64,000 nt of DNA, from positions 66,195 through 130,194 of IMG/VR virus record IMGVR_UViG_3300032235_000647; one strand, written 5' to 3'. Shown one piece after another: positions 1 through 14,665 of this stretch. The notes below the pieces were generated by a model. It saw only the letters and a program-made list of their open reading frames with translations. It ran no database searches and was not told where the DNA came from. The stretch's first letter is position 1; each line of letters opens with the position of its first letter. A program made the position numbers and the translations under genes. Origin of the DNA: a virus.

Positions 1-95
1 TGAGCCTTAGGGTCTTTTTCCTTACCTTTTTCTTTATATTTACCATACCCAACGTGAGTATATTCGGCCTCTAAAAGTAAATTTTTTAATCTCAT
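1..95 (-). CDS. Partial ORF (runs off left edge), putative head-targeted internal protein
   Basis: Not in ORF track. Translates from ATG at 95 as MRLKNLLLEAEYTHVGYGKYKEKGKEKDPKA; nearly the same module (YTHIGYGRYKEKGKEKD) occurs inside the 1829-aa ORF. Confidence 0.75.
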   Translation of the reverse strand, partial: MRLKNLLLEAEYTHVGYGKYKEKGKEKDPKA

Positions 96-97
96 TC

Positions 98-295
98 TTA
101 TCTCCACTTATGGGTTGTTTCTACTTTTTTATTTGTATAAAGGTCTAATTTACCATCTTCGGTAAATTTAACTTCGTAATTTGTTTTTCTTATATCATTA
201 TGACCACCTTTGTAGGGAGTATCGCCAACTTCTTTTTGGATTTTACCAACATTGATTGTATTCTTGGCCATATAATCTTTTATATCGAATGCCAT
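98..295 (-). CDS. Small hypothetical protein in head operon
   Basis: 65-aa ORF tightly packed between the protease and the next gene. Confidence 0.7.
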   Translation of the reverse strand: MAFDIKDYMAKNTINVGKIQKEVGDTPYKGGHNDIRKTNYEVKFTEDGKLDLYTNKKVETTHKWR

Positions 296-299
296 ATAA

Positions 300-890
300 T
301 TAGTGTAATTCTGTTATAATTTCTCTCATCAAGTCTTGTGCTTTGCAGTAATCACCACAAACAACACCCTCTTGAATGTTTTTATTTACTGATTCTTGTA
401 ATGGAGTCATGAACGCACCATGAGTAGATGGATTAGAAACGAAATCCCAACCAATCAATTCAAAGTCATCACCAACTTTTACCTTACCTTCACCTATATT
501 CGTCACCGAACCCATACCACGAGATGATATTCCTAATAGAATACCAGCTCTTAATAACTCTTTAAGTATATTTCCTGATGGAGTTGGAAGTATTTCAACG
601 GTACCAACCAAATCATCACCATCCCAATGAATTTCTCTTACATTGTGAGAAACATTCTTCAAGTTGATTACAGAAGAATCAGGATGGTCTAACTCGCCCA
701 ATGCTCTTCTTTCTTTAATAAGAGTTTCGTATTTCTTAGCCTCTCTCATTAAGATTTCTCTTGGATATATTCTACCATTTTGGTTTTCTGCACCTGCTCG
801 TTGTAAAATACCCTTAACGAGAGTTCTTCCACTCGCGTCTTCGTTTATTCTACCTTCAAATAGGTTTGTTTCTATTAGTAATGATTTCAT
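300..890 (-). CDS. gp21: Prohead core protease (T4 gp21-like)
   Basis: Motifs NQNGRIYP, ALGELDHP, NVSH, TPSG, GISSRGMGS, DFVSNPS match gp21-family proteases; near the portal gene. Confidence 0.95.
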   Translation of the reverse strand: MKSLLIETNLFEGRINEDASGRTLVKGILQRAGAENQNGRIYPREILMREAKKYETLIKERRALGELDHPDSSVINLKNVSHNVREIHWDGDDLVGTVEILPTPSGNILKELLRAGILLGISSRGMGSVTNIGEGKVKVGDDFELIGWDFVSNPSTHGAFMTPLQESVNKNIQEGVVCGDYCKAQDLMREIITELH

Positions 891-898
891 TTTAATCC

Positions 899-2329
899 TT
901 ATCTTTTTAATTTTACAACTTTAATAGTTGGTTTTACTGCTTCGTTTACTGACTCATCAGCTGGATACTTGATACCAAATTTTGCTAGCGCTTTTCTTTT
1001 GTATTCTAACGCCTTTGCAGCTCTACTTAGATATTTTTTAAAAAATGCAAGCATCTCCTCTTTTGTATCAAATGCCTGTGACCCCCTAAACTGTGTATCA
1101 CTTAAATCAGTAGTCCAAAATGCGGCAGAACCTCTATCATAGTCATAGTATCCTACAATTTTACCATTTAATAATATTTTACCATCTTTAGCAATTAGAC
1201 TTTCGTTTACTGACTCTACTGCGTATTTGGTTTCCGATTCACCCAATTGTTTTCCAAATTCATCCCAAATCTGTAATGCTCTTTTTTGAACACCTTCTTT
1301 AGAATTACTTGCACCAACTGGAATAACTTTCTGAAGTTTACCACGAACTACAAACCCACCATACATGGTCTCACCCTTTGTAGTTTTGACTACTACTATT
1401 TGAATACCTTGTTCATTTTTAAGTTTACTTACAACTTTAATAGTTGGCTTTGATGCTTCGTTTACTGATTTACTTTCAGCCATACCATTATAAGTTAATA
1501 GTTTTTTATGTTTTTTAGCAAACATGGAAACTATTTTTAATACTTCGGCTTCACTCTTAATATATCTCTTTTCCTCAATGGTATCATTTTGTGTTCTTTG
1601 AACTAACACATGATATGTTCCTTCAATTTTTTTATCGCCATCAACATATCCAGGTCCTCTTCTTACTTCTATAAGATTTGAATATAAAGGACTATCACCA
1701 TGCATAGGATGGGGTAATATAAAGTAGTATTTTTCTTCTCCTATAAATCTACCACCTAATGGGGAATGGCCTACTTTAAGTTTATTAATACCCAATTCTT
1801 TTTTAATAATTACTTCTATTTTTTTAGCAAGATTTGATGGGAAATGTTCGGTTGCTTCGTTTACACCCCCTACTTCGGATTTTCCTTCCGATACATCCCA
1901 TTGTTTTTTAGTCATTATACTATGTCCACCAGGACTTTTCATGACCCATGCTTTTGCTTCACTACCTGATTTAAATGTTTTGACCAATTTTGGGCCTTTT
2001 GGAGTTTTTTCAATCCCAACCCATGCCCCAGATGCCATTGCTTCGTTTGTTTTACCAGCTCTTAATGCAGCTAAATCAGATGCCTCAATCTCACCATCAC
2101 CATCAACATCTAATTTGTGTTGATTGCCAGTCAATTCTTCGTTCTTTTCACCCTTAGCATCCCAAGCGGCATCAATTTTGTTAAAGAAAGCCTTTTTTTC
2201 TTCATCACTCATATCAGGAATAGACTTTCCAGCCTTTTCTAATGCTCTTTTAAAGAACTCTTGATACTCTGATTCATCTATCATTACTTCTCTTACGATA
2301 CCTTTGAATTGTTCTTTTGTTATTTTCAT
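899..2329 (-). CDS. Modular internal head/core protein with (S)VNE-separated cassettes
   Basis: 476 aa; linkers KTNEA, GVNEA, SVNEA, SVNES, SVNEA; EF-hand-like LDVDGDGEIEASDL motif; immediately upstream of the protease. Confidence 0.7.
   Translation of the reverse strand: MKITKEQFKGIVREVMIDESEYQEFFKRALEKAGKSIPDMSDEEKKAFFNKIDAAWDAKGEKNEELTGNQHKLDVDGDGEIEASDLAALRAGKTNEAMASGAWVGIEKTPKGPKLVKTFKSGSEAKAWVMKSPGGHSIMTKKQWDVSEGKSEVGGVNEATEHFPSNLAKKIEVIIKKELGINKLKVGHSPLGGRFIGEEKYYFILPHPMHGDSPLYSNLIEVRRGPGYVDGDKKIEGTYHVLVQRTQNDTIEEKRYIKSEAEVLKIVSMFAKKHKKLLTYNGMAESKSVNEASKPTIKVVSKLKNEQGIQIVVVKTTKGETMYGGFVVRGKLQKVIPVGASNSKEGVQKRALQIWDEFGKQLGESETKYAVESVNESLIAKDGKILLNGKIVGYYDYDRGSAAFWTTDLSDTQFRGSQAFDTKEEMLAFFKKYLSRAAKALEYKRKALAKFGIKYPADESVNEAVKPTIKVVKLKR
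913..1468. repeat. 40-bp direct repeat (913-952 and 1429-1468), 37/40 identical
   Basis: ttacaactttaatagttgg(ttttac/ctttga)tgcttcgtttactga; encodes SVNEA(S/V)KPTIKVV twice. Confidence 0.9.
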
Positions 2330-2979
2330 TTTTCTATCTCCTGAAGAGTTCTTGCTATGTTAATTAATCTTTCTTTTATTTTATAAATATGGGTGTTGGT
2401 TCTTTTCCAATAGTTATCGGAATCCAACTCATTGATGTTTTTAATCTTGTTATACCAAGAAAAAAACTTTTCAACTTCTGCCAATTGATATTTTAATTCT
2501 TTCAATCCAGTTGCCAATTTTTTATTAGCATGCATTGATGTATCATTCTTTAATTCTAACCAACGATTTTCGGTTATAGATTCATCTATTTTAAAATCCT
2601 TGAAGTTTCCTATATGAGATGCAAGAGCAGCAGAATGATATAGTTTACCACTAATTTTATTTTTAAAACTATTTGCACCGATTTTAACAAAAGGTCCATA
2701 TCCACCACCTGAAACTTTAGCCCCATTTGGTAATCCCTTTAATTGTTTTTCTCTGTCTTGAAGATTTGTTTCAGTAATATTATCTACATCATTATCAACT
2801 ACCGAATACCCTAATTGAGTTGCAATTTTCTTTCTTCTTTGGGAATCGGATTTACGTGAAAAAGCATGAGGAGTCTGATATCCATCAGTATTACCTGTCA
2901 CATTGGATTCTTCTAACTCCTTTTCAACTTCGTGAATAAGTTCGTCTATGTATTTTTTAAGAGATTCTTTTTTTAACAT
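2326..2979 (-). CDS. Putative prohead core protein
   Basis: 217 aa between portal and protease; LEE/ITE motifs; helical C-terminus. Confidence 0.6.
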   Translation of the reverse strand: MLKKESLKKYIDELIHEVEKELEESNVTGNTDGYQTPHAFSRKSDSQRRKKIATQLGYSVVDNDVDNITETNLQDREKQLKGLPNGAKVSGGGYGPFVKIGANSFKNKISGKLYHSAALASHIGNFKDFKIDESITENRWLELKNDTSMHANKKLATGLKELKYQLAEVEKFFSWYNKIKNINELDSDNYWKRTNTHIYKIKERLINIARTLQEIEK

Positions 2980-3826
2980 TTTTTATTTCCTTTACCAATT
3001 CATACGCCATCATTAAAGAAGAAACTTGTTCATCGGTAACTTTCTTACCAATTTTTTGTGTCTTTAATACATTAATAGTTTCTTTTAATTTGATTTTTGT
3101 AATTCTATCTTCCATTTTTGTATAAATGGAATGTAGTTCAGTTATTACTAGTTTTAATTGATTAGAATAATATTCACCAAATTTAGATGTATTGGTAACA
3201 TTGTTAATATATTCTCTCAATAAATTTTTCTGAACATCATTGAGATTTGAATATTTCTTATTAAATGTTTCAAGAAGGATTTTATAAGTAAGTAAACGAA
3301 GATCCTTTTCTTGTTTTTTATAATCTTCAACCAGTCTATCTTCTTTTTGCTTTAATGTAGGACTTGATGTAGATATATGTTCTACCAATGTTAATTTTGA
3401 ATCAAATATATCTTTTATATCGGAAATATCAGATTTTTTAGCCTCAAATAGTTTATGAATCGAAGCCAATACTCTATAATTTGTTACAGGTGAAGTTAAG
3501 AAATTATCAATTTCAAATGTTTCTTTAATTGCCTTTACAAGATTATATTTTTCTTTAATGAGTTTTTGTTCATCAAGTTTAGTTCTAGCCTCTAATATAG
3601 CATCAATAAACTTTTCAGCTTTAGATTCTGTATTATACTTTTCATCTATTAAAAGTTTATATAGACGAAGTTCTTTAGATAATTCAGTCCCATTACCAAA
3701 GAATTCGGCTACAATTTTTTTAGCTTTCTCAGGAGAGTTGTTTAATATCTCTAAAGTTATTTGACGGGTTAATAGTTCAAATAGAAAACCCGTATTTTTA
3801 AATTTAGAATGTTTAATTTTTTTCAT
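2957..3826 (-). CDS. Hypothetical head-cluster protein (helical)
   Basis: 289-aa ORF directly downstream of portal; preceded by the recurrent promoter-like motif. Confidence 0.7.
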   Translation of the reverse strand: MKKIKHSKFKNTGFLFELLTRQITLEILNNSPEKAKKIVAEFFGNGTELSKELRLYKLLIDEKYNTESKAEKFIDAILEARTKLDEQKLIKEKYNLVKAIKETFEIDNFLTSPVTNYRVLASIHKLFEAKKSDISDIKDIFDSKLTLVEHISTSSPTLKQKEDRLVEDYKKQEKDLRLLTYKILLETFNKKYSNLNDVQKNLLREYINNVTNTSKFGEYYSNQLKLVITELHSIYTKMEDRITKIKLKETINVLKTQKIGKKVTDEQVSSLMMAYELVKEIKNVKKRIS

Positions 3827-3867
3827 ATTTACTCAATTATTTATTTTGATATACTCAAAAACTCTTA

Positions 3868-3881
3868 TATAAATATAAATA
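3868..3881 (-). promoter_or_regulatory. Recurrent TATTTATA motif (two overlapping copies), putative late promoter
   Basis: Plus-strand tataaata at 3868 and 3874, upstream of the start at 3826. Confidence 0.6.
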
Positions 3882-3900
3882 TTTTTTTGATTTGTTATTT

Positions 3901-5637
3901 TTATTGATTATCTAGTATATTTGATTCGTCTAACATACCTTTTGTTTCATGTAGATATTTTCTCTTCGAAGAAATACCATTAATATATTTCAAGGCTTTT
4001 TGTTCGGATGTTCGATGTTTTAACACATTATTATTTTCCTTATCACCAAGAGGGTCTCTACCAAATGGTGATTTATCTTTACCATAGGTATTACCCTCTC
4101 GTGGTCTTCCACCTTTATCTTTAGTTGCTTCTAATTCAGTTTTAAGTTGATTGAGAGATTCTTCAACATCTTCAGGTTCATTCTGCATAGCAGGATCATT
4201 ACCTTGGTCTTCAATAGAACGATATCTGAATCTATCTTTAATATCATTAATAATTTTAACTCGTTGAACCTCTTGTTCACCATCTGCTAACTTAAAGATA
4301 TTCTCATAAACCCAATCTTTAGATAACATATTTAGACCAGCTATATCGGTTGCTAATCTTACCTTTTCAGACCATAGGTTTACTCGTTCTTGTTCGTAAA
4401 TAGTAGATGGGTTAATCAAATTCAATTCAAAGTTTGTCATTTCAACATCTTGAATTCCCTGAGAATATAAGTGAATGATTGCAATCTTTGATAATTCTGA
4501 TATGATTGTTCGTTGGATTCTTTCAATAGTTCTAGCAAAACGAACATCTTCTGCAGCAAGAGTAGCCTTACCATTTACATTCTCATCATATCCCAAATAT
4601 GCCTTAGGAATTTTAAGAGCAGCAAAAAGTTTATTTTTTAGATATTGAATATCTTCAGTTGCTGCATAATCCAAACCTGAAATATTTTCGATAGAAGTTC
4701 CACTATCGCCACCACGAACTGGTAAGAAGAAATCTTCTGTTAGGTTTTGCATATTATACTTCAAGTTATACTCACCACTATTTCTATCAATAAAAGGAAC
4801 TTTCTTCATCTTATTGATAATTCGTTGCATGTAGTTATCAACTTCTTGTGGTGGGATATTACCGATATCAATTTTGAACACTCTTTTCTCAGGTGCTCTC
4901 ATGATTCGGTGAATCAACATGGCATCTTCCATAAGAGATAATTGTTTCCACAATCTTCTACCATTTTCAATCATAGATTTACCGTATGGAAGCCAGTTTG
5001 TATCTGATAATAATCTAAAGTGTGCAATTTCAAAGTTATCATATTCCATTTTACCCATAGGGTCTTCGGTAATTTTAAACTTTACTGCGTTTGGATTATT
5101 TGGGTCTATAAGTTCTAATCTTTCAGTATTATAAACTGAATGTGGGGTTGCGTTTACGATACCCTTTCCTTCTGCAATTTCCAACCCAAGAAAAAAGTCA
5201 CCATACTTACACATATTTCGTGTCCATGGCCATAGGTTGAATTCAACATTTAGAATATCATAGAATAAATTCTCTAGGGATTCTTGAACTCTATTATTAT
5301 CCGAACGAATTGAAAGGATTGTTCCAAATTCGTTTTTAAGTGTAGATTCATCTGCATAAATATCTAATGCAGAAGCAATGATTGGGTCTTGGTCCATTGC
5401 ATCATAATCACGAAAAACCTCTCTACGAACTTGCTGATATGCCATTGATTGGGCACCACCAGCCTGCTCGTAAAAGGATTTCTGCAACTTAGTGTATCTG
5501 TCCCTTAACGATGATAAGTTCGTTTGTTGTCTTTCATCAGTATCAACTACCCTTCTCTTACCATCTTTATCAACCGTAACAATTGCCTTTGATGAAAAGA
5601 GTTTGGATAATCTACCGAAAAATGAAGTATCTGCCAT
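3901..5637 (-). CDS. gp20: Portal protein (T4 gp20-like)
   Basis: QLSLMEDAMLIHRIMRAPEKRVFKIDIGN, EDFFLPVRGG, DIQYLKNKLFAALKIP and EDVRFARTIERIQ parallel T4 gp20 motifs. Confidence 0.95.
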   Translation of the reverse strand: MADTSFFGRLSKLFSSKAIVTVDKDGKRRVVDTDERQQTNLSSLRDRYTKLQKSFYEQAGGAQSMAYQQVRREVFRDYDAMDQDPIIASALDIYADESTLKNEFGTILSIRSDNNRVQESLENLFYDILNVEFNLWPWTRNMCKYGDFFLGLEIAEGKGIVNATPHSVYNTERLELIDPNNPNAVKFKITEDPMGKMEYDNFEIAHFRLLSDTNWLPYGKSMIENGRRLWKQLSLMEDAMLIHRIMRAPEKRVFKIDIGNIPPQEVDNYMQRIINKMKKVPFIDRNSGEYNLKYNMQNLTEDFFLPVRGGDSGTSIENISGLDYAATEDIQYLKNKLFAALKIPKAYLGYDENVNGKATLAAEDVRFARTIERIQRTIISELSKIAIIHLYSQGIQDVEMTNFELNLINPSTIYEQERVNLWSEKVRLATDIAGLNMLSKDWVYENIFKLADGEQEVQRVKIINDIKDRFRYRSIEDQGNDPAMQNEPEDVEESLNQLKTELEATKDKGGRPREGNTYGKDKSPFGRDPLGDKENNNVLKHRTSEQKALKYINGISSKRKYLHETKGMLDESNILDNQ

Positions 5638-5678
5638 TTGTTTTCCTAATTTATATTATAACCTTTATTATTTTTATT

Positions 5679-6128
5679 TTACCACTTTCTACAACTCCAA
5701 TATCTTGCTTTATGTCTTGGTCCTGGTGATTCACAATTATGTCTTGCTCTAAAAGATTTTCTTCTTTCAGGATTGTTCTTTTTAATTTTTACACCCTTTT
5801 GTCCGAAGTTAACTTTTACAACATTTCCTTGTGGATTTTTTACATATACCTTAAATTTCTTAACATCACCTGCCATTGGTTTTCCCAACTTCACTTCTCT
5901 ACCTGGATATTCTGCTTCATAAACACAATTACAATTTGCTTCCGTAAGTTCGGTTGTGTATGATTTTAAGAAATTTAGAAAATCCTCTTCATCTTCTTCT
6001 TCAACATCAAGTTCGTCATAATCTAAAAAATTATGTTCTGCTGCATCAAATGGATAATCTTGAACATAACCATCAGTATTTTCTTTGATGGATTGTTTTT
6101 TATTTAAAATATTTTTTAACTTTATCAT
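5679..6128 (-). CDS. Putative head-targeted protein with basic C-terminal module (RRKSFRARHNC...ARYWSC)
   Basis: N-terminus MIKLKNIL..IKE, acidic linker, then a basic Cys/His module recognisable from T4-like phages. Confidence 0.7.
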   Translation of the reverse strand: MIKLKNILNKKQSIKENTDGYVQDYPFDAAEHNFLDYDELDVEEEDEEDFLNFLKSYTTELTEANCNCVYEAEYPGREVKLGKPMAGDVKKFKVYVKNPQGNVVKVNFGQKGVKIKKNNPERRKSFRARHNCESPGPRHKARYWSCRKW

Positions 6129-6146
6129 AATAGGGTCTCCTTATAC

Positions 6147-6154
6147 TATAAATA
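6147..6154 (-). promoter_or_regulatory. Recurrent TATTTATA motif
   Basis: About 19 nt upstream of the start at 6128. Confidence 0.6.
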
Positions 6155-6180
6155 TATACTTCTAATAATAACCTATTATT

Positions 6181-7758
6181 TTAAATTAACCAAGTTAGGT
6201 CTTCATCTTGATTACCAACTTTCATTGACCACGGATTTGTATCAACCGATGAATTGCCACCAAACCCATCTAATGTAAATGAGTGTTGCTGTATACCACC
6301 AAGCGTTCGTTTAGTTAAATCAACACCTTCTTGTCTCAAACGAAGTGCTGTATCTCTAACCCAAAGAGCAATTCCTAATGCCATTACAAGGTCATCATTG
6401 TATCCTCTCATTGCTTCTGCACGATTTCCCGTCCATATAAAAGTAAATAATTCATCTATCAAACGAGTAGAACGAATTGTCACGTCTTTTTCTCTAATGT
6501 ATTGTTCTAACTTGGAAACAATAAGTGGACGAGTTTTCATTGTAGTTGAAAATCCAGCAACCATACCTCTTTCTTCTGCTCTGAATTTATTATGTAGTTG
6601 ATGTTGGACATCTACATATTTTAAATCCTTACTCATGTAGAATAGATTTGAATAACCCCTATCGATTACTTGTTGAATTACTGCCCAACCAATGTTTGCG
6701 TTTTCAATTACTAATAGGGCCTCATTATAATCAGTAGAAAGGGATACTAAGAAATTTCCAAAATCCTTTGTATCCATTTTTCCTTTGTATTCAGCCACTT
6801 GTGTTGCAGTTTCCACATCAAATACATGACACGCAGAGTAATCCGCACCATCACCCCTAGCAACGTCAGCTACAACCATGTATCCTTTGTTGTAATCAGG
6901 GTATTCCCATCTCCATAGATTATGGTCTATCCAAGTTTTTTCAATAGGGTCTTGGCAATATGATTCTTTGTAGAATTGTAATAATTGTGGGTCAATAACC
7001 GTGTCACCAGAAGAAACGAAGTCACAATCACATTCTTGTGCTGCACCTTTCGGTCCTAATAATCGTTCTTGTTCATCTCTCCATGCTTGTCCTCGTTCTG
7101 GGTGAACTGACCAATGTAGTCGGATTGTATTAAATCCGTTTGTTTCATCTTCTGCACCTACCCATGTTTTATGGAAAAAATTACCTACACCATTTGGAGT
7201 AGAAAGTATAATTGCATTACCACCCGTTGAAAGGGTAGATTGTGCAGATATCCAAATCTCTTCAATTTTATCAATGAAAGCAGCCTCATCAAATACCAAT
7301 AGGGATAGTGCTTCGGAACGGCCGGCGTCTCCTGCAGCAGAAGTTGCTTTGATTTGAGAACCATTCGAATATCGTAGAGATAATTTATTGTCTTCTACGG
7401 TAGTTTGTTTTAACCAACTCGGTAGGTATTGATTCATAACTCGAACCTTCGTTACAAGGTTCTTTGCCACCTCTTGCTTGGTTGCAATTACCAACACATT
7501 AAAGTCTTGGTTGAATAACATCTTCCAAAGTGAAAATCCTGCTACAAGAGTAGATATACCAGTCTGACGGGATTTTAGAACGATATTATATCTATGGTCT
7601 TTAAATTCGGTGAGAGTTCGTTCTTGGAACGGGTATAAGTGAAAAGGAATTTTGCCACGAACAGGATGTTGAATCATACAATACTTCTTCATAAAGTAAA
7701 TTGGATCCGAAGCACATTTTTGATACTCTAACTTTATTATTTCCTTTAAACTCGGCAT
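6181..7758 (-). CDS. terL: Terminase large subunit (T4 gp17-like)
   Basis: Walker A-like KSRQTGIST, Walker B LLVFDEAAF, ILSTPNG, nuclease ADVARGDGADYS and YNDDLVMA. No intein visible. Confidence 0.96.
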   Translation of the reverse strand: MPSLKEIIKLEYQKCASDPIYFMKKYCMIQHPVRGKIPFHLYPFQERTLTEFKDHRYNIVLKSRQTGISTLVAGFSLWKMLFNQDFNVLVIATKQEVAKNLVTKVRVMNQYLPSWLKQTTVEDNKLSLRYSNGSQIKATSAAGDAGRSEALSLLVFDEAAFIDKIEEIWISAQSTLSTGGNAIILSTPNGVGNFFHKTWVGAEDETNGFNTIRLHWSVHPERGQAWRDEQERLLGPKGAAQECDCDFVSSGDTVIDPQLLQFYKESYCQDPIEKTWIDHNLWRWEYPDYNKGYMVVADVARGDGADYSACHVFDVETATQVAEYKGKMDTKDFGNFLVSLSTDYNEALLVIENANIGWAVIQQVIDRGYSNLFYMSKDLKYVDVQHQLHNKFRAEERGMVAGFSTTMKTRPLIVSKLEQYIREKDVTIRSTRLIDELFTFIWTGNRAEAMRGYNDDLVMALGIALWVRDTALRLRQEGVDLTKRTLGGIQQHSFTLDGFGGNSSVDTNPWSMKVGNQDEDLTWLI

Positions 7759-7763
7759 TATTT

Positions 7764-8183
7764 TTAGTTTACAAGTAATACACCAACTGCTATAACACCA
7801 ACAATTGTTCCCACCTTATATAAAAAAGTTTTTCTCTTTTCTGATTTCAATTCCTTTAATAGGGATTCGGATTTTTCTCGTTCTAACTTAAATTGCTCAT
7901 CTTTCTGTGTGATGATATAATCCAAATTAGTAATTTTAGAATTGAGAGTCAAAATTATTTCATCTTTAAGTACTAATTTTTGATTTGTTAATGAAAGAAC
8001 TTTTTTAGTTTCTTCTAACTCAATGAGTGCACCATCCCCTTTAATTAAATCTTTGATGATTAATTTTGCAGTAGGAATTTTTAGTGCTACAATAGTATCA
8101 GTTTGAGTCTGATTCGTAACGGTCTGTGAAAAACTTGTTAAGGTCACTAAAATTAAACTTATTAACAGAATTAACTTTTTCAT
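7764..8183 (-). CDS. Membrane coiled-coil protein, possible spanin-like component
   Basis: Signal peptide ending SFS-Q, coiled coil, C-terminal hydrophobic helix; overlaps the upstream gene by 86 nt. Confidence 0.5.
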   Translation of the reverse strand: MKKLILLISLILVTLTSFSQTVTNQTQTDTIVALKIPTAKLIIKDLIKGDGALIELEETKKVLSLTNQKLVLKDEIILTLNSKITNLDYIITQKDEQFKLEREKSESLLKELKSEKRKTFLYKVGTIVGVIAVGVLLVN

Positions 8184-8445
8184 TTGTATTTACCTTTATA
8201 TTTCTTATGTTTGTATTAACTGATGTAATATCAGTATCTAATAACCCAATTTCGGAAGATATGCTATCTATTTTTAAATCTAAATTTTTATTTACAAGTA
8301 CAACCGAATCTATATTGTGTTGAATACTATCGATTTTTTGGTTATACATTTCTATATCCGTTTTTAGTTGTTTAGTAGAATAAATACTATATGCCAATAA
8401 ACATATTAAAACCAATAATAGAAACGATACATTTCCATTTTTCAT
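8098..8445 (-). CDS. N-terminal TM coiled-coil protein, possible inner-membrane spanin (Rz-like)
   Basis: Hydrophobic N-terminal anchor followed by heptad-like repeats; overlapping gene pair. Confidence 0.5.
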   Translation of the reverse strand: MKNGNVSFLLLVLICLLAYSIYSTKQLKTDIEMYNQKIDSIQHNIDSVVLVNKNLDLKIDSISSEIGLLDTDITSVNTNIRNIKVNTNEKVNSVNKFNFSDLNKFFTDRYESDSN

Positions 8446-8460
8446 AAAAAAACTCCTTTA

Positions 8461-9117
8461 CTATAAATAGTGTTCTAATTTGTGTTCTTTTATAACCTCG
8501 AAAGCTTCATTTCGTTTTTCTACAACTTCTTTTAATTCAATTTCACCATTATCAATAATTTCTTGAATTTCAATCTTTACTTCATCGATTGGTTTTGGTA
8601 AACTCCATTTTTCAACCGTTCCATCTTCATTAATAAATTCATAATAAGGTTTTAATTCAGTTAATGAGTGTTTTAATTCTTCTAATTTCATTTTACCTTC
8701 TACAATCATACGAGTGTAAATTCGAAAATCTTCATATTCTTTCCAAATTCCAGCCCCTCTGAAATTATGTTCGATATCTGCCAAACAATTAATACAATAT
8801 CCAGTTTTTTGTATTAATTTTTCATCATTTTTAGTTTTTTTAATCTTTTTACAACTTGGATTACTACATTCCTTTTTAAGATTTAAATAATTACGAATTT
8901 CTTGTAAGGCTTCGTGATTTTTTCCAGTTTTAATGGTATAACCTTCCTTTTTTTCGTATCTGTAAAATTCATCCTCCCAAATATCACCAACATTTCGTTG
9001 TTCTTCGGTTTTTGTCCAACCAATTTGAGTATTATTATCATACTCACCAGTTTGAATCATATCTACCAACTTTCTACGAGTTGGGTGCATATATTTTCGT
9101 TGAAATTCTTTACTCAT
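8461..9117 (-). CDS. Hypothetical protein with Cys cluster
   Basis: 218 aa; CSNPSC...CINC putative Zn site. Confidence 0.7.
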   Translation of the reverse strand: MSKEFQRKYMHPTRRKLVDMIQTGEYDNNTQIGWTKTEEQRNVGDIWEDEFYRYEKKEGYTIKTGKNHEALQEIRNYLNLKKECSNPSCKKIKKTKNDEKLIQKTGYCINCLADIEHNFRGAGIWKEYEDFRIYTRMIVEGKMKLEELKHSLTELKPYYEFINEDGTVEKWSLPKPIDEVKIEIQEIIDNGEIELKEVVEKRNEAFEVIKEHKLEHYL

Positions 9118-9175: not shown

Positions 9176-12100
9176 TTAAGCGTAAAATATACCTAAAATC
9201 TGATTTAATGAGGCAAATGCACCAGTTAATTTGAAAGTTTTACCTTGATATGTAAAAACTATACCTTCGTTTGGAACAATTTTATCAGCCCCACCGATTG
9301 CTTGTAATCTTCTCAACTCTAATTTCAATTTTTCAATCTTTTTAGGGTCTCCTGATTTCTCAACTTCCTTAATTGTTTGGTCTAATCTCTTTTTCATGTC
9401 TCGAATTGCTGCATCAGGGTTTACAGTCAATACTGATGATGTGAATTGTAGAACTTCTGCTCCAACTCCCAAGAAAATATCCTCAAATTTCATTAGGTTT
9501 TGTTTTGTGATTTTAGCTTGGTCTTCTTTATCAGTTGTTAATGCCCAATTTAACACTTTTTCATCAGTTATGTTCTTACTATCAATTCGAAACCCTTTGT
9601 CACCAAATGCCCATCTCTTGACCAATCCCATTTTGGTTTTATTATCCAACATTGATGGTGATTTTTTGTTAATATAATCATTCCACCATGCTTGATGATA
9701 CTCAGCAACACCATCAGTATCTTTCAAACCGAATTCTTTTTGTAATTTTGAGATTTTAGCAGTATATTTTCCTTTTTTAGATGAAAGGTCTTGTGATTTT
9801 GGTAAAAAAAGAACAGGAGGTCCTTGAATTGTGTAATTATCTTGAACATCTTTGTTTATTTGTTTAATCATACCCGCAAGGATTTTTGCTGCTCCTTGAT
9901 TTTCACCTATTGCATTACCTTCATCATCATATTCCATCGTTCCATGGAACACTAATAGTGGTTGTCCGTAAGGAATTACATTGACTGATGTTGGATATAT
10001 CACTTCAAGATTCATAAAACAAGCACCATCCTTAAAAATTTTAAATCGTTGGGCTTCTGAAAGTGATTTTATAGCATCGGTGAGGTCTTTCATTGCAAAA
10101 TTATACGCTTTTTCCAATTCACCTCTGCCAGTAAACTTATCTGCCACACCTTTTATGTCTAAAGCACCAGCACCTTTGTTTTTCAAGTGTCCTTTATTAC
10201 GAGCGGCAACTAATCTTCCACCTACCCATGAGATTGCAAGGGCTTGACCATCAGTTTTTTCTCGTGCAAGTTCTAAATTTCCATCCAATGCACGATTAAC
10301 AATATCTTTTAGTTGTCCAAAAGTTAAATTGATTTCGGTATCAAATGGATGATTCATGTGTCCATACGCACCACCTTCTTTTAAAAGGGATTCTTTAACG
10401 GATTGGTATTTTTTATTCCATACATATTGGAATAACTCACCCCATATAGGTCCATCAATTTTACCATCCCACTCGTAATTATATATAGGTTTACTATTAA
10501 ATGATTTGCCAGTTTTATTAAGAGCAGTTCTTCCCAACCCTTTTACATTAGTAGATTTTGGTTTTACTAATTTTTTACCACCCCAAGTTTTTTCGAGTCG
10601 TTTCTCATCTTTGTAATGTAAAAATAACTGATAACCTCTATTTACATCTTTAACCTTATCCACAATTTTCTGCATGAAATCTTCTACTTTTGGATATTTT
10701 TTTAAAAATGCTTCAACTCTTCTTGGGTCTATATATCTAGCAACTTCTTCTTTTAATTCATAAGTTTTTTTATGAATAGTATCAAGTTGTTTTCTCAACT
10801 TTTTCATTTCCTTCTCATGATTATCCATCCACGCTTGGTCAGGATATCCATGAGGTGCTAATTCATCTATTTTTTTATTTATTTTTCTGAATTTATCCAA
10901 TTCTATTTCACGAAGTTGTTTTAATGCTTCCTCATAAGTTTCATGGGTACCTAATTTTTCACCACCAGTTTTACGATATACCACCCACTTATTATCTACT
11001 TTTTGAATTGTTTCTTCTATCTTTTTAAGTTTCGTATAATATTTTGGGTCTTCAAATAGGTGGTCCATTGCTATTTCTTTTGCAATATCAGTATCAGTAG
11101 TATGTTCCCTTTCTACTTTATACCCCTTTTTGAATTCATCCATCAATTCTGAAACTGGGATATTGTGTTTTTTAGCAATATCAGATAAACTCATACCTTG
11201 TGATAATCCACCTGGTATTTTAGATTCCTTTTTAATTGATTTCGTACTATTCATAAATTCTTGTGGTGATTTAAAATGAGCTTTTAATATACGATTGTAT
11301 TTAGATGTTTTGTTTCCATCACCATGTACCATTAGAGGTATTCCTTGGTCTACTGCTCTTCCTAATTCAAATTTTGATGGAACTTCGTGAACTAATTCAA
11401 AACCAGGTAGGCTTCCTAAATAATATTCTTGGGTATCGTACTCTTCCCAAGAATGATTGTACATATAGCCAGTAGCTCCTGCAGCATCGTTAGGAGTCAT
11501 TGAACCCCTGACCCCATCATAAAAACCACTATTGACTTCATCTATTAAATTTTCCGATTCAAAGGATAGAATAGGATCAGATGATTTAAAATCATCCTTT
11601 CGCATCACCGTTTTTGCAATGGCCTGATTTGCTTGTTTAACAAAAGGAATGTTTATATCATATCTTTTATCTCTAACAACTATTTCTTTATATTTCTCTA
11701 AAAATTCTTTAAATTTATTTTTTATTCTTGATAATCTTTTAAAGAATCCTGTTAATTCAGCATCAGAAATCGGTTTACCATTTCTTGGATCATTTACTCT
11801 ATCAAAGAAATGTTGAGTAAACTCAATATCTTGTGGTGATAATTGTTTTTCTGCATATCTCTCAACACCTCTTAATTGAGACATACTCATTTCATTTGTT
11901 GGAGTATCAAAAGTTAAATTACTTGGATATTGGTTAACCGATTTGAATCTATCTGCTTCCTTTTGCTTTAATGCAGGAAGGAATCTAAATTTGGCAAGTT
12001 TAACAATTTTTCTTTTCTTTTTTTGAACCATTTGAGATACTCTAGTCTTTTGTGGTAAAGAGAGTTCATTATAAGGAGTCATTCCAAATAATCGTTGAGT

Positions 12101-14665
12101 CCATTCTTTCCTTACATACAAGTAAGCAAGTTTGTATGCTCTTTTATATAAAACTGAATATGGTTTTTTACGAATTTGTGTTCGTTGTTTTTTAATGTTG
12201 ATTAGTTTTTTATTTTTTGCAAAACTCCATCTCCTTGCAGCTCTTTGTGCTTGAGTTAAAGCCTCATCCAAACTTTCTTCATCTTCCCACTCTTCTAATT
12301 CTGCAAAATCATACTCTTGTTGCTGAGAATCCCAACCACAAGTGTGACATAAATATGGATGTTCATCTTTTACTTCAAGTTCCCATTCATGTTCACATAT
12401 TTCACATTTAATAGAAGTTCCAGCAATGGATTCCATCATAATTGGATCAGAACCCATCCACTCATTTTTCATCATATTGTCTACTAACTCAACATGAGAT
12501 TCACCAGCTAATACAATAGGAATTTTACCTTGTGAAGATAATTCTTTTGTTTTTCTTAACAAATTTACATCTCTGAATTTATTAAAAGATTCTTGTGCAG
12601 CATGTATTTTTGTTTTCTTATCACCATAATCATCTGCAAAAGATAATCTATATAGAGTATCAACATCTTCTTCAGTTGGATTTGAATCCCATGTATTCGA
12701 TAAAGGTAGATTTGCTTCTTGTGCTGATTGTTTTAAAAGTTCTTTACCTTTATCGGTTAAGTAATCTTCAGGTGACATATCTTCTACACTATCACCTTGT
12801 CCTATCATACTTGCCCAATTGGCAGCCATGACTTCTTCATTACTTAATCCAGTTTCTTGTTCTTGGTATTTGTATAGTGGAGATTCATTATCAAATACAC
12901 TTGTCTCGTCACCATCCCATGTATCAATTCCTGCACCAATTTTTTGGAATTTCTTTGCAGCATAATCCATTTCGCCACCAAATTCCAACTCACCCTCATC
13001 ATTACCCATTCCACCTTCACCTACAAACACAACGTCTTTCCATCTATCTTGTGGTATAGTTGATTTTACTTTATCAAGTATATCATCAACCATTTTTTTA
13101 TTTCCATGAACGGTTCCAAATACTTGCCCACCACCTTCAAGTTCGGTTGTTTGAATTTCCTTACCTGATTTAGCTCCTTGAAATGTATTTACACCTGATT
13201 TAGGTTGTTGTTTTTTAGCAGGATCACTTGATGGTAGTGAATCCTTATATCCACTATCTTTTGAAAAAATATTTTGTTTTGGTTTATTTTCAGGTGTAGA
13301 ATCACCACTCTCTATTGGAGTGTATTTACCACTATCATCTTTTTTAAAAATAGGAGCAGAAGAATCTTTTTCTTTACCTTTTTCCTTATATCTACCATAC
13401 CCAATATGGGTATATTTTTCATCTTCTTTATCGGCCTCAAAGAAAACTTGCTTTCCTTCCTTAACCAATCTGAATGTGACAACTTTTTTGCCATTTATAG
13501 TTGGCATCCCGTGTTCGTCTTTACCGATTGTTTTTACAACTACTTTTTTATTTTTGAATTTACCCATCAATAGAGTATCTCCAATTTCAACTGGTAACGT
13601 GATTGATTCCTTAACAACCTTTTTATCAGATTCTTTTGAAAGTTCTCTAGCACCTTTAGCAAGTTGTGTTGAAAGTTTATCATCAACATTTAATGCTTTA
13701 TCAACTACTGAATAACCAACTAATGATGCAGTACGAGTCACGTGTTTATACCACTTATCATAAGCACCATTTACCATTACATCAAATTCACCCATTGGGT
13801 CTTTTTTACCAATAGCACCTCTTGGAAAAAATGTAACTCTACCACTTGGTCCTTCTGGGTATGTAATATAATCATCCATTGAATCATCCATAACCATATT
13901 GATTATTTCCCATCCAATTTGTTGAGCTCTTTCGCCGTTGATGACTTTAAACGAATTATAGTCCGGTAAGAAAATAACAGGACCATCATCAACCATATCT
14001 TGGCCAAATCCAGATGATACTTCTATGAGTAAATCTTCAAGTTGTGTTTTAGATAATCTGATACAAGATTCTTGTAACTTATTTGTAATAAGGTTGAATA
14101 TTGTTTTGTTGAATTTAGAATATGCTCTATCTACAAAAAAGTTCTTTTTTTGTTCTTCACTTCCACTTCCCAATCCAATTCTTACTTCGGTTCCACTTAC
14201 TCCTCCGCCACCCTCAGGTGCCACATAAATATATCCCTTATCTTTATATCCTTCGGTTGGGTTACCATCCCACTTTGCAAAATATTTACCACCCAATCTA
14301 CTTGCATCTTTTTGGCCAACTACGGTTACAAAAGCAGTAGTTTTTTCATCAAACTTTTTTAGGATTTCGGTAGGTGCATAAGGATTCTTGACCTCGTATA
14401 TTTTGTTTGATGGAACACCAAACATCGTGGTCATAATTTGTTTTTTCTCCTTAAAATTAAATGGAGATTTTGGTTTTTCTACTTTATCAGAAGTTCCTAT
14501 AAATACATTATCTTTTCCGAACTTACTAACTAAATGTGAATAAGTTGCATAATGACCTTTATGAAAAGGTTGAAATCTACCTGCATAAATGACTACTGTC
14601 TTTTTTATGGGGGTAGATTCCTCTAATAATATTTGTTCTACTAAATATCTTGAAAGTTCGTTCAT
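9176..14665 (-). CDS. 1829-aa multi-domain protein: HxGH nucleotidyltransferase, TraB/Tiki-like, Zn ribbon, BECR-like, DUF5661-like and ligase-like domains
   Basis: YAGRFQPFHKGH; FGTVHG..GEGG..FRD..AGESHV; CEIC..CHTC; FTQHFFDR..KTVMRK; KVEREHT..AKEIAMDHL.E.P.YY; EKTDGQ..EGIVF..FKLTG. Confidence 0.75.
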   Translation of the reverse strand: MNELSRYLVEQILLEESTPIKKTVVIYAGRFQPFHKGHYATYSHLVSKFGKDNVFIGTSDKVEKPKSPFNFKEKKQIMTTMFGVPSNKIYEVKNPYAPTEILKKFDEKTTAFVTVVGQKDASRLGGKYFAKWDGNPTEGYKDKGYIYVAPEGGGGVSGTEVRIGLGSGSEEQKKNFFVDRAYSKFNKTIFNLITNKLQESCIRLSKTQLEDLLIEVSSGFGQDMVDDGPVIFLPDYNSFKVINGERAQQIGWEIINMVMDDSMDDYITYPEGPSGRVTFFPRGAIGKKDPMGEFDVMVNGAYDKWYKHVTRTASLVGYSVVDKALNVDDKLSTQLAKGARELSKESDKKVVKESITLPVEIGDTLLMGKFKNKKVVVKTIGKDEHGMPTINGKKVVTFRLVKEGKQVFFEADKEDEKYTHIGYGRYKEKGKEKDSSAPIFKKDDSGKYTPIESGDSTPENKPKQNIFSKDSGYKDSLPSSDPAKKQQPKSGVNTFQGAKSGKEIQTTELEGGGQVFGTVHGNKKMVDDILDKVKSTIPQDRWKDVVFVGEGGMGNDEGELEFGGEMDYAAKKFQKIGAGIDTWDGDETSVFDNESPLYKYQEQETGLSNEEVMAANWASMIGQGDSVEDMSPEDYLTDKGKELLKQSAQEANLPLSNTWDSNPTEEDVDTLYRLSFADDYGDKKTKIHAAQESFNKFRDVNLLRKTKELSSQGKIPIVLAGESHVELVDNMMKNEWMGSDPIMMESIAGTSIKCEICEHEWELEVKDEHPYLCHTCGWDSQQQEYDFAELEEWEDEESLDEALTQAQRAARRWSFAKNKKLINIKKQRTQIRKKPYSVLYKRAYKLAYLYVRKEWTQRLFGMTPYNELSLPQKTRVSQMVQKKKRKIVKLAKFRFLPALKQKEADRFKSVNQYPSNLTFDTPTNEMSMSQLRGVERYAEKQLSPQDIEFTQHFFDRVNDPRNGKPISDAELTGFFKRLSRIKNKFKEFLEKYKEIVVRDKRYDINIPFVKQANQAIAKTVMRKDDFKSSDPILSFESENLIDEVNSGFYDGVRGSMTPNDAAGATGYMYNHSWEEYDTQEYYLGSLPGFELVHEVPSKFELGRAVDQGIPLMVHGDGNKTSKYNRILKAHFKSPQEFMNSTKSIKKESKIPGGLSQGMSLSDIAKKHNIPVSELMDEFKKGYKVEREHTTDTDIAKEIAMDHLFEDPKYYTKLKKIEETIQKVDNKWVVYRKTGGEKLGTHETYEEALKQLREIELDKFRKINKKIDELAPHGYPDQAWMDNHEKEMKKLRKQLDTIHKKTYELKEEVARYIDPRRVEAFLKKYPKVEDFMQKIVDKVKDVNRGYQLFLHYKDEKRLEKTWGGKKLVKPKSTNVKGLGRTALNKTGKSFNSKPIYNYEWDGKIDGPIWGELFQYVWNKKYQSVKESLLKEGGAYGHMNHPFDTEINLTFGQLKDIVNRALDGNLELAREKTDGQALAISWVGGRLVAARNKGHLKNKGAGALDIKGVADKFTGRGELEKAYNFAMKDLTDAIKSLSEAQRFKIFKDGACFMNLEVIYPTSVNVIPYGQPLLVFHGTMEYDDEGNAIGENQGAAKILAGMIKQINKDVQDNYTIQGPPVLFLPKSQDLSSKKGKYTAKISKLQKEFGLKDTDGVAEYHQAWWNDYINKKSPSMLDNKTKMGLVKRWAFGDKGFRIDSKNITDEKVLNWALTTDKEDQAKITKQNLMKFEDIFLGVGAEVLQFTSSVLTVNPDAAIRDMKKRLDQTIKEVEKSGDPKKIEKLKLELRRLQAIGGADKIVPNEGIVFTYQGKTFKLTGAFASLNQILGIFYA

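Follow-up and report, generated by a model that had tools for sequence, protein, structure and literature searches.

In passages of PMC3012670 and PMC12373910, the internal proteins of T-even phages are described as diverse proteins that have only a packaging leader in common, with Ip1-3 being injected inhibitors of type IV restriction enzymes. Passages of PMC9026906 add that the first 10 residues are enough for the packaging of IPIII, that gp21 cuts after the Glu of L/I-x-E (a site first known as a Glu-Ala bond), that gp22, gp67 and gp68 are each cut into several fragments by gp21, and that the fragments of T4 core proteins mostly leave the head. Here we describe a gene of 476 amino acids (aa) that adjoins a gp21-like protease gene in a 64,000-nucleotide (nt) stretch of viral DNA, positions 66,195 to 130,194 of IMG/VR record IMGVR_UViG_3300032235_000647 (hereafter the window). 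Its product consists of a conserved N-terminal domain and a row of unrelated modules, each preceded by a short standard linker at which modules are exchanged between close relatives, and which may also serve as a cleavage site.

The array is like the T-even internal proteins in comprising small unrelated proteins at a hypervariable locus, with an aliphatic-x-Glu site of gp21 type and a short constant sequence, as these proteins appear in passages of PMC3012670, PMC9026906 and PMC12373910, where they are proposed, and for Ip1-3 shown, to act as anti-restriction factors that are injected. The T-even proteins, however, have separate genes with leaders of their own, whereas here several are concatenated in one frame behind a 96-aa domain, and the constant element is not a leader but an internal linker repeated before every module. 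With T4 gp67 and gp68 the 476-aa protein shares the slot between portal and protease, the T4 pair being core proteins that are cut several times (passages of PMC9026906). The gp68 sequence contains S-I-N-E; BLASTP of the 476-aa protein against gp67 and gp68 gave no alignment at E≤10, and at 80 and 141 aa both are short, unlike the one described here. We know of no report that gp67 or gp68 is modular or variable. Polyvalent proteins also have several domains (2-15), a head-gene context of portal/terminase type, predicted packaging and delivery, occasional processing and a mosaic build (Iyer et al. 2017, PMC5512222), to be compared with five modules here, 1-12 in relatives and likewise a head-gene context. 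Their domains are large and recognizably enzymatic or antirestrictive, and processing by an in-built MPTase has been proposed for them (PMC5512222), whereas the modules here are small and without Pfam families, a standard linker stands before every one of them and the candidate protease is a separate prohead protease. The inner-body and ejection proteins of phiKZ, 201phi2-1 and SPN3US are head-internal too, and undergo multiple redundant post-Glu cuts by a diverged gp21 homolog (passages of PMC9026906). Finally, PeSL shuffling in T4-like phages uses a short conserved sequence flanking unrelated genes as its exchange point between close relatives (Comeau et al. 2014, PMC4122927). PeSLs, however, are stem-loops with promoter/terminator function that lie between genes and exchange these whole, whereas the linker here is coding DNA, in frame and 12-15 nt long, and exchanges modules within a gene.

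What is new is the arrangement, namely many small unrelated modules in one frame, each behind a standard linker that is kept both as DNA and as a peptide with the form of a protease site, and at which recombination demonstrably takes place. As judged from its sequence, the system combines themes of the T4 internal proteins, the gp21-processed core, the polyvalent proteins and the PeSLs, and is a sequence member of none of them. The site motif of phiKZ-type giant phages, S/A/G-x-E, differs from the linkers described here, and to our knowledge cassette shuffling at giant-phage cleavage sites has not been described. Keyword searches of the open-access literature returned no description of such a cassette arrangement, which does not prove its absence.

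All joints in the 476-aa protein are x[V/T]NE↓[A/S] linkers (the arrow marks the bond after Glu), separating stretches of 96, 62, 133, 85, 87 and 12 aa. KTNEA, GVNEA, SVNEA, SVNES and SVNEA stand at the residues where an earlier note, made from the letters of the window, had placed them (Table 1), and four linkers hold the DNA core GTAAACGAA (at 941, 1202, 1457 and 1856) to which that note had drawn attention. This core occurs six times in the window, four of them inside the 476-aa gene, against 0.57 expected, and six copies were reached in 0 of 100 shuffles. At the peptide level, [VI]NE[AS] is found six times in the whole viral record holding the window (130,194 nt, 32% G+C, 125 open reading frames (ORFs), 41,611 aa), and four of the occurrences fall in the 476-aa gene, which makes up 1.1% of the residues (binomial p 2.5e-7). 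BLASTP detected no mutual similarity among the five modules (best E 0.25), in agreement with their description as unrelated. The picture of a plain string of modules held for four of them; the first stretch is a conserved domain rather than variable cargo, and after the last linker there is no full module, just a 12-aa remnant. The earlier note had thus missed that the N-terminal 96 aa are a conserved anchor and that the gene is truncated at its 3' end, and also that a 217-aa neighbour belongs to the same cassette system.

The remnant goes back to a 40-nt direct repeat (913-952 and 1429-1468, 93% identity), the copies of which are 516 nt apart, so that the reading frame is kept. A further direct repeat, of 52 nt with 77% identity (1202-1253 and 1856-1907), spans linkers 4 and 2 together with the residues that precede them. 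Just ahead of linker 4, 'SETKYAVE' looks like the tail of an Ab-type module, which in relatives reads '...EAKYAVESVNE', and is probably a scar, module 5 having come in with the end of its earlier neighbour.

Exchange at the linkers was seen in loci with nearly the same flanks as the window. The portal and protease fragments of L003 and L004 are 100% identical to those of the window, and the flanking DNA is 97.4% (L003), 97.1% (L004) and 92.7% (L005) identical; despite this, the cassette genes of all three loci carry other modules. In blastn comparisons, homology from the upstream side ends at linker 2 (codon 151 for L003 and L004, codon 160 for L005), restarts at linker 3 (codons 285-287), ends again at codon 368, just ahead of linker 4, and resumes only at window position 914, which is intergenic spacer in those loci. 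Thus modules 3 and 5 are peculiar to the window's version, and the usual C-terminal module has been lost from it. Module 3 is missing from L003-L005 and likewise from a contig of another study's metagenome (X7), which joins 1466 to 1878 in frame; the 411 nt skipped are exactly module 3 between two linkers. In an X4 contig, 915-1235 is replaced by 329 other letters, an X4 loose end lies at 1469, by linker 3, the joints of the X4 and X19 contigs at 1236 lie near linker 4, and an X2 contig has modules 3 and 4 contiguous. Sampled words of the stretch were sought in 20 runs, which belong to 13 studies. The probable source run alone held all of them; 17 other DNA runs held 30-36% and two RNA-library runs 5-9%, and the proportion in the other DNA runs fits common flanks with different cassettes.

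The same behaviour is found across the family. Relatives in the protein database comprise 661 clusters in the size range 261-833 aa and 1035 in the range 30-260 aa, and we examined 240, the best 120 of each set. They are 70-94% identical to the window protein over the first ~96 residues, beyond which coverage varies widely. When cut at the motif, they resolve into recurring modules in varying number and order, and nearly every joint is E-S-[V/I]-N-E with A, S, G, D or E as the next residue. The proteins were split at a linker regular expression (regex), and the segments of ≥20 aa, 981 in number, fell into 132 clusters; 74 of these had two or more members and 36 had five or more. The N-terminal module comes first in 216 of the 240 proteins, and these 216 display 125 distinct architectures of 1-12 modules each. 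Both orders were seen for 62 module pairs among the 240; module 5, for example, precedes module 4 in seven relatives, the reverse of the window order. The smallest members (157-159 aa) have a single linker, between the N-terminal domain and a C-terminal module of 57 aa. [VI]NEA stands directly before the module 4 type in 54/54 occurrences, whereas module 3 is rare, with just eight relatives at E≤1e-3 among 1.84 billion representatives; a viral-contig scan returned no relative of module 3 and three loci for module 5. A whole-protein MAFFT alignment of 90 relatives (A1) placed shuffled modules under the wrong query modules, with modules 3 and 5 at 15-19% identity, and was not used for folding; two sub-queries (A2 and A3) were folded instead.

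Taken together, these results leave us in hardly any doubt that modular cassettes are exchanged at the linkers. Recombination at a standard in-frame linker between flanks that are 97% identical is a clear instance of domain-level modular evolution even without cleavage. The proposal that the linker acts as a recombination anchor is borne out by the gain, loss, swapping and reordering of modules, by DNA breakpoints at the linkers, by the contigs of other studies and by the codon fixation described below; orthologous loci, once aligned, proved not to be collinear, their modules changing at the linkers.

The linker DNA, TCA GTA AAC GAA GCA, is kept beyond amino-acid need. We counted codons in 35 linkers of 19 distinct genes, one from the window and the others from 18 loci (seven loci were excluded, six as duplicates and L006). 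Val is encoded by GTA in 32/32 cases, against 44% elsewhere in the same genes (p 3e-12), Asn by AAC in 28/35 against 40% (p 2e-6) and Ser by TCA in 26/31 against 28% (p 1e-10), although these p values overstate independence because the genes are related. Since the linker regex had itself defined the cuts, we ran a module-start test independent of it, in which the starts of eight module families, picked by eye out of 74, were found by their own sequence. A Glu was present no more than four residues upstream of the module start in 210/210 occurrences, versus ~30% by composition. In the 107 unique contexts, with the Glu as P1, position P3 was V in 84, I in 8 and T in 8 (V/I/T in 100/107), P2 was N in 75, E in 14, D in 11 and S in 4, and P1' was A in 73 and S in 21 (A/S in 94/107). 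A junction logo drawn from the regex-defined cuts is circular and was not used as evidence. A further regex-free test, on the ends of ungapped high-scoring segment pairs, was weakly informative (16% of ends ≤3 aa from [VI]NE versus 4% at random), the signal being diluted because some ends stem from divergence within modules.

The linkers share the form of a gp21 site, an aliphatic residue, any residue and Glu followed by a small residue, and the variable P2 between kept P3 and P1 mirrors the gp21 motif. It could nevertheless be that the protein is an uncleaved 'beads on a string' head protein, in which the linker serves only as a flexible spacer, with DNA that promotes domain shuffling, and looks like a protease site by coincidence. 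Linker codons fixed beyond amino-acid need would be expected in that case, as would P4 and P2 stricter than a gp21-type site demands and the occurrence of linker-joined modules away from the protease gene too. A pure DNA signal, on the other hand, would not be expected to give a P1 Glu that is never lost, V/I/T at P3 and a free P2, which is the pattern of a protease site, and coincidence sits poorly with the tight synteny with the S77 protease and a like-formed site in the capsid protein. We therefore consider an uncleaved protein quite improbable.

That the adjoining gene encodes a gp21-like protease was confirmed by matches to Peptidase_S77 (Pfam PF03420, 96 bits against a cut-off of 27, E 2.6e-27), to PHROG 207 'head maturation protease' (1.3e-50) and to the structure of T4 gp21 (PDB 5JBL, E 2.6e-18). 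His69 (GELDHP) and Ser122/123 (GISSRG) are invariant between this protease, T4 gp21 and the proteins of Flavobacterium phage immuto and Microcystis phage Mel-JY01, and we take the conserved His and Ser to be the catalytic residues. In an alignment of capsid proteins, LLDE↓ATATG of the present phage stands in the column of T4 FLTE↓AEIGG and of IVSE↓ANVTG in immuto; FLTE↓A is presumably the point at which the T4 capsid protein is cut. In the C-terminal region of the protease, LQE↓S is aligned with ITE↓S of gp21 and LNE↓G of immuto, and PLQE↓S may be a self-processing site. The same region reads ...PLQE↓SVNKNIQE, an aliphatic-x-Glu followed by a linker-like SVNK. From these sequence likenesses, it appears probable that the linkers are cut by the neighbouring S77 protease.

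The genomic setting is that of a head operon. Every ORF of ≥90 aa in the window that does not lie inside a longer ORF is on the minus strand, the start of the 476-aa ORF overlaps the end of the upstream gene by 4 nt and 8 nt separate its stop from the 196-aa protease ORF. Homologs lie downstream of the portal/p289/p217 block in 24 of 25 viral-contig loci, and the S77 protease is directly downstream of the homolog in 22 of the 25; two of the remaining loci stop short of the protease position and L006 represents a different context. Beyond the window, the region downstream of the protease contains several small ORFs together with genes for a homolog of ribosomal protein S21, an acidic, scaffold-like protein of 400 aa and the gp23-type capsid protein. 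Because the T4 order is read as 20-67-68-21-22-23, the 476-aa gene occupies the slot of the prohead core genes 67/68. A gene unrelated to the head, for example one for a secreted or surface multidomain protein, could sit in such a cluster by chance, and its dockerin/EF-hand-like loop and the lack of homology to known head proteins would suit such an origin. With the position kept in 24 of 25 loci, the late head operon co-oriented with its ORFs overlapping or abutting and modules common to other genes of the same head block, we regard this as highly improbable.

Modules of the family are found outside the 476-aa gene as well. An 83-aa gene downstream of the protease, ~2.7 kb left of the window (G000:C1:63236-63487; L029:9237-9488, minus strand) is 88% identical to module Bh and begins with the leader MKSTRLTSILKE followed by T, and elsewhere module Bh is the last polyprotein module, after ...ADESVNE (P0043, P0069, P0080, L006). 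Similarly, three of the eight module 3 relatives are proteins of 142-263 aa with the module behind a short leader (MKLTKSQLREIIREE..., ...RGELNE↓A and ...LKLELNE↓N); the leaders of near-stand-alone module 3 end in ...LNE↓ or IIREE. Leaders of the form MK...[IL]L[KQ]E are present on ORFs of 113, 215 and 83 aa and on the 476-aa gene (G000:C1:62043-70020, partly window 1-3826), and they resemble T4-type packaging leaders. A self-made leader regex (M, K/R, 3-11 residues, two aliphatic residues, x, E) matched seven of the 125 ORFs, five of them within the 10-ORF head block (p 2e-5). The 215-aa and 933-aa genes of the head block share modules Ac and An with the cassette family.

The upstream neighbour of 217 aa has a conserved N-terminal end of ~70 aa and a C-terminal end of ~85 aa ('NRWLELKND...') with variable modules between them. 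Its relatives (L012:2389, L017:3436, L019:3718 and L026:2691) contain 1-4 modules joined by ESVNE, ESINE or ESISE linkers, and two of the modules are reversed in L019 relative to L017 and L012; only the conserved ends are common to Mel-JY01 (179 aa) and immuto (74 aa). In L006 (2500-8924), linker-joined modules are spread over several adjacent genes, including a 491-aa protein that lacks the N-terminal domain and a 381-aa protein headed by DUF3008, whose linkers are KESTNE and AESVNE. No adjoining protease was found there in 2500-8500, and tblastn with the window protease was negative across the locus. The presence of linker-joined modules in L006 and P0249 shows that the cassette system is wider than the 476-aa gene.

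Two of these observations, the gene position and the mobility of the modules, also bear on a cleaved prohead-core or scaffold accessory, a gp67/gp68 analogue whose fragments would be expelled or degraded and whose modules would be filler or determinants of size or assembly. Such a role would suit a gene in the 67/68 slot of T4, where core-protein fragments mostly leave the head, as noted above from passages of PMC9026906, and it would suit the lack of any module with a recognizable effector fold. The modules, however, are predicted to be folded domains of 60-130 aa, unlike short scaffold peptides, and one would expect filler neither to differ between phages with flanks of 97% identity nor to be kept as free-standing, leader-bearing genes; we consider this role unlikely.

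The N-terminal domain opens with the leader-like MKITKEQFKGIVRE, a short stretch ending V-R-E, and contains one DxDxDG loop (DVDGDGEIEASDL). The single loop gave an EF-hand_7 score of 17.6 bits in the window protein, below the cut-off of 30, and Dockerin_1 was above its cut-off in 7 of 51 relatives, those with a duplicated DxDxDG loop; in all, Pfam analysis of the 51 found only a DUF3008 N-terminal add-on (5) and Dockerin/EF-hand (8). An ESM Atlas search with this domain returned unnamed viral clusters only, and a scan of species-representative genomes gave three weak matches (38-45% identity, E ~6e-5) from which no host can be inferred; relatives of the phage infect Flavobacterium. The whole 476-aa protein had no family above threshold in Pfam and PHROGs, and a PDB sequence search gave a best E of only 0.77.

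Structure prediction by module, which the earlier note had proposed, was successful in part. The AlphaFold model of module 3 was confident (predicted local distance difference test score (pLDDT) 79.4, predicted template-modelling score 0.77), with the last nine residues, belonging to the linker, below 50; module 4 was fairly confident (pLDDT 75-83, following linker <50), and module 5 was of low confidence (pLDDT 50-64, tail <50). The linkers are thus predicted to be disordered. Foldseek with module 3 found nothing convincing in PDB (best E 0.1), and its best match in BFVD (E 3.8e-3) was to unnamed proteins. Fold matches of module 3 (VIA wide) to the C-terminal part of Mediator Med17 (best Z 9.7, root-mean-square deviation 4.4 over 102 residues) were near background, and no function was assigned; those to the TriTu immunity protein (Z 7.2), anti-CRISPR AcrIIA11 (Z 5.6) and PsiB (Z 5.1) were near the stated background too. 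For modules 4+5 (VIA wide), the best matches, hibernation-factor/dsRBD-like alpha-beta folds at Z 5.8, were background, module 5 being barely tested.

Table 1. Features of the cassette gene and its neighbours in the window, in minus-strand order
Feature	Position in window	Strand	Remarks
Large terminase	6181-7758	-	First in local minus-strand order
149-aa ORF	between large terminase and portal	-	
T4-type portal	3901-5637	-	Pfam Portal_T4, 2.8e-67
289-aa ORF (p289)	between portal and 217-aa ORF	-	
217-aa ORF (p217), second cassette carrier	2326-2979	-	Conserved ends, one variable module here
476-aa cassette gene	899..2329	-	Putative precursor: N-terminal domain, four modules and remnant; from ORF, homologs and architectures
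Conserved N-terminal domain, aa 1-96	2042..2329	-	Constant part of family
Linker 1, KTNEA, aa 93-97	2039..2053	-	
Module 2, aa 97-158, cluster Ab	1856..2041	-	'MASGAWVG...'; 78 segments in cluster
Linker 2, GVNEA, aa 155-159	1853..1867	-	GTAAACGAA at 1856-1864
Module 3, aa 159-291, cluster Bb	1457..1855	-	Rare; predicted independent fold (helix, sheet, helices)
Linker 3, SVNEA, aa 288-292	1454..1468	-	GTAAACGAA at 1457-1465
Module 4, aa 292-376, cluster Ad	1202..1456	-	'KPTIKVV...'; common putative cargo module; 53 segments in cluster
Linker 4, SVNES, aa 373-377	1199..1213	-	GTAAACGAA at 1202-1210
Module 5, aa 377-463, cluster Ag	941..1201	-	'SLIAKDGK...'; 29 segments in cluster
Linker 5, SVNEA, aa 460-464	938..952	-	GTAAACGAA at 941-949
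12-aa remnant VKPTIKVVKLKR and stop codon	899..940	-	Second, truncated copy of module 4 start
196-aa S77 (T4 gp21-like) prohead protease	300-890	-	Presumed processing enzyme; Pfam, PHROG and PDB matches

Several side observations concern the same region. Contigs of X19, a lake metatranscriptome, match 340-620, 853-898 joined to 1236-1330, 1320-1566, 1801-1863 and 2945-3093 at 90-99% identity, and in one X19 variant the end of module 4 is joined to the stop region of the gene via 10 other letters; the matches in the protease and cassette genes come from an RNA library, which is no proof that these genes are transcribed. The 933-aa protein (window 1-107 plus G000:C1:63500-66301; L029:9501-12302, minus strand) lies directly downstream of the protease operon, and the 290 aa at its C-terminus consist of proline-rich repeats that share 89% identity with module An. 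It repeats a leader-plus-start, …RLKNLLLE↓AEYTHVGYGKYKEKGK at the N-terminus and …STRLTSILKE↓ASEDDKYTHIGYGRYKEKGK internally, as if it too were a concatenate; a ParB-like identity was dropped, Pfam having found no family in it. An 82-aa homolog of ribosomal protein S21 (Pfam 1.4e-12; L029:7752-8000, minus strand) is located inside the head-gene cluster, between the protease block and the scaffold gene, and Mel-JY01 has an annotated RpsU in the same region. A protein of 1829 aa (window 9176-14665, minus strand) has an N-terminal cytidylyltransferase-like domain and DUF5661, and its residues 1317-1417 are 35% identical to module Bj, without linkers of ESVNE type; it may be a classical polyvalent-type protein.

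On balance we favour, with moderate confidence, the view that the 53-kDa product of the 476-aa gene is a prohead-core precursor polyprotein which is cut into small packaged and ejected proteins. The motif form, the gene position, the predicted disorder of the linkers, the capsid site and the leader-bearing free modules are all consistent with such a sequence of events. The N-terminal domain, with its leader ending V-R-E and its calcium-loop, dockerin-like motif, would direct the precursor to the scaffold core during assembly. After closure of the shell, the S77 protease would cut after Glu in each exposed E-S-[V/I]-N-E↓[A/S/G] linker, freeing four small proteins of ~7-15 kDa, each with a fold of its own. 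If the T4 internal proteins are a guide, the freed modules would then stay alongside the DNA in the capsid and pass into the host when infection takes place. The fixed 12-15 nt of the linker DNA flank every module, so that linker-linker recombination allows modules to be inserted, deleted, swapped and reordered in frame, and close phage relatives consequently carry different modules as their putative payloads. Cleavage, packaging, ejection and an anti-host role are what we infer for the modules; a role as delivered effectors, judged by analogy, is plausible but falls somewhat short of probable.

Several points weigh against this view. Position P3 is mostly Val, versus the Leu/Ile documented for T4, and is Thr in linker 1, and the Ser at P4 and Asn at P2 are stricter than a gp21-type site needs, so that homogenization of the DNA alone could account for them. 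Linker-joined modules also occur without the N-terminal domain and without an adjoining protease (L006; P0249). The fold searches with modules 3 and 4+5 revealed no likeness to a known effector or inhibitor beyond background, and the window copy, being 3'-truncated, could be a decaying variant. The codon and architecture counts were drawn from related sequences rather than independent events. Finally, tblastn with the whole protein against 50,697 phage records, T4 included, gave no match at E≤1e-3, and on this ground the phages form a clade without a cultured member.

In its widest form, which we put forward only tentatively, the reading is that uncultured freshwater T4-type phages run an in-frame cassette array in which a 15-nt/5-residue element would be both protease site and recombination site, re-arming injected anti-defence payloads; at least 74 module families (in 240 proteins) would be inserted, deleted, reordered and moved between polyproteins and leader-bearing free genes. 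Cleavage at the linkers would mean that a single gene delivers several independent proteins, and the same short sequence would then account for both their release and their reshuffling. Should this be true, the idea of the T4 internal proteins would be extended to a polyprotein format in abundant environmental phages, and the combination of ES[V/I]NE flanks with an adjoining S77 protease would serve as a simple rule by which metagenomes could be searched for candidate capsid-delivered proteins, in the hundreds. A natural design by which T4-type capsids could be loaded with several cargo proteins would be gained as well. It would also amount to an integron-like system at the level of protein domains, by which each phage lineage could quickly re-arm its injected anti-defence repertoire.

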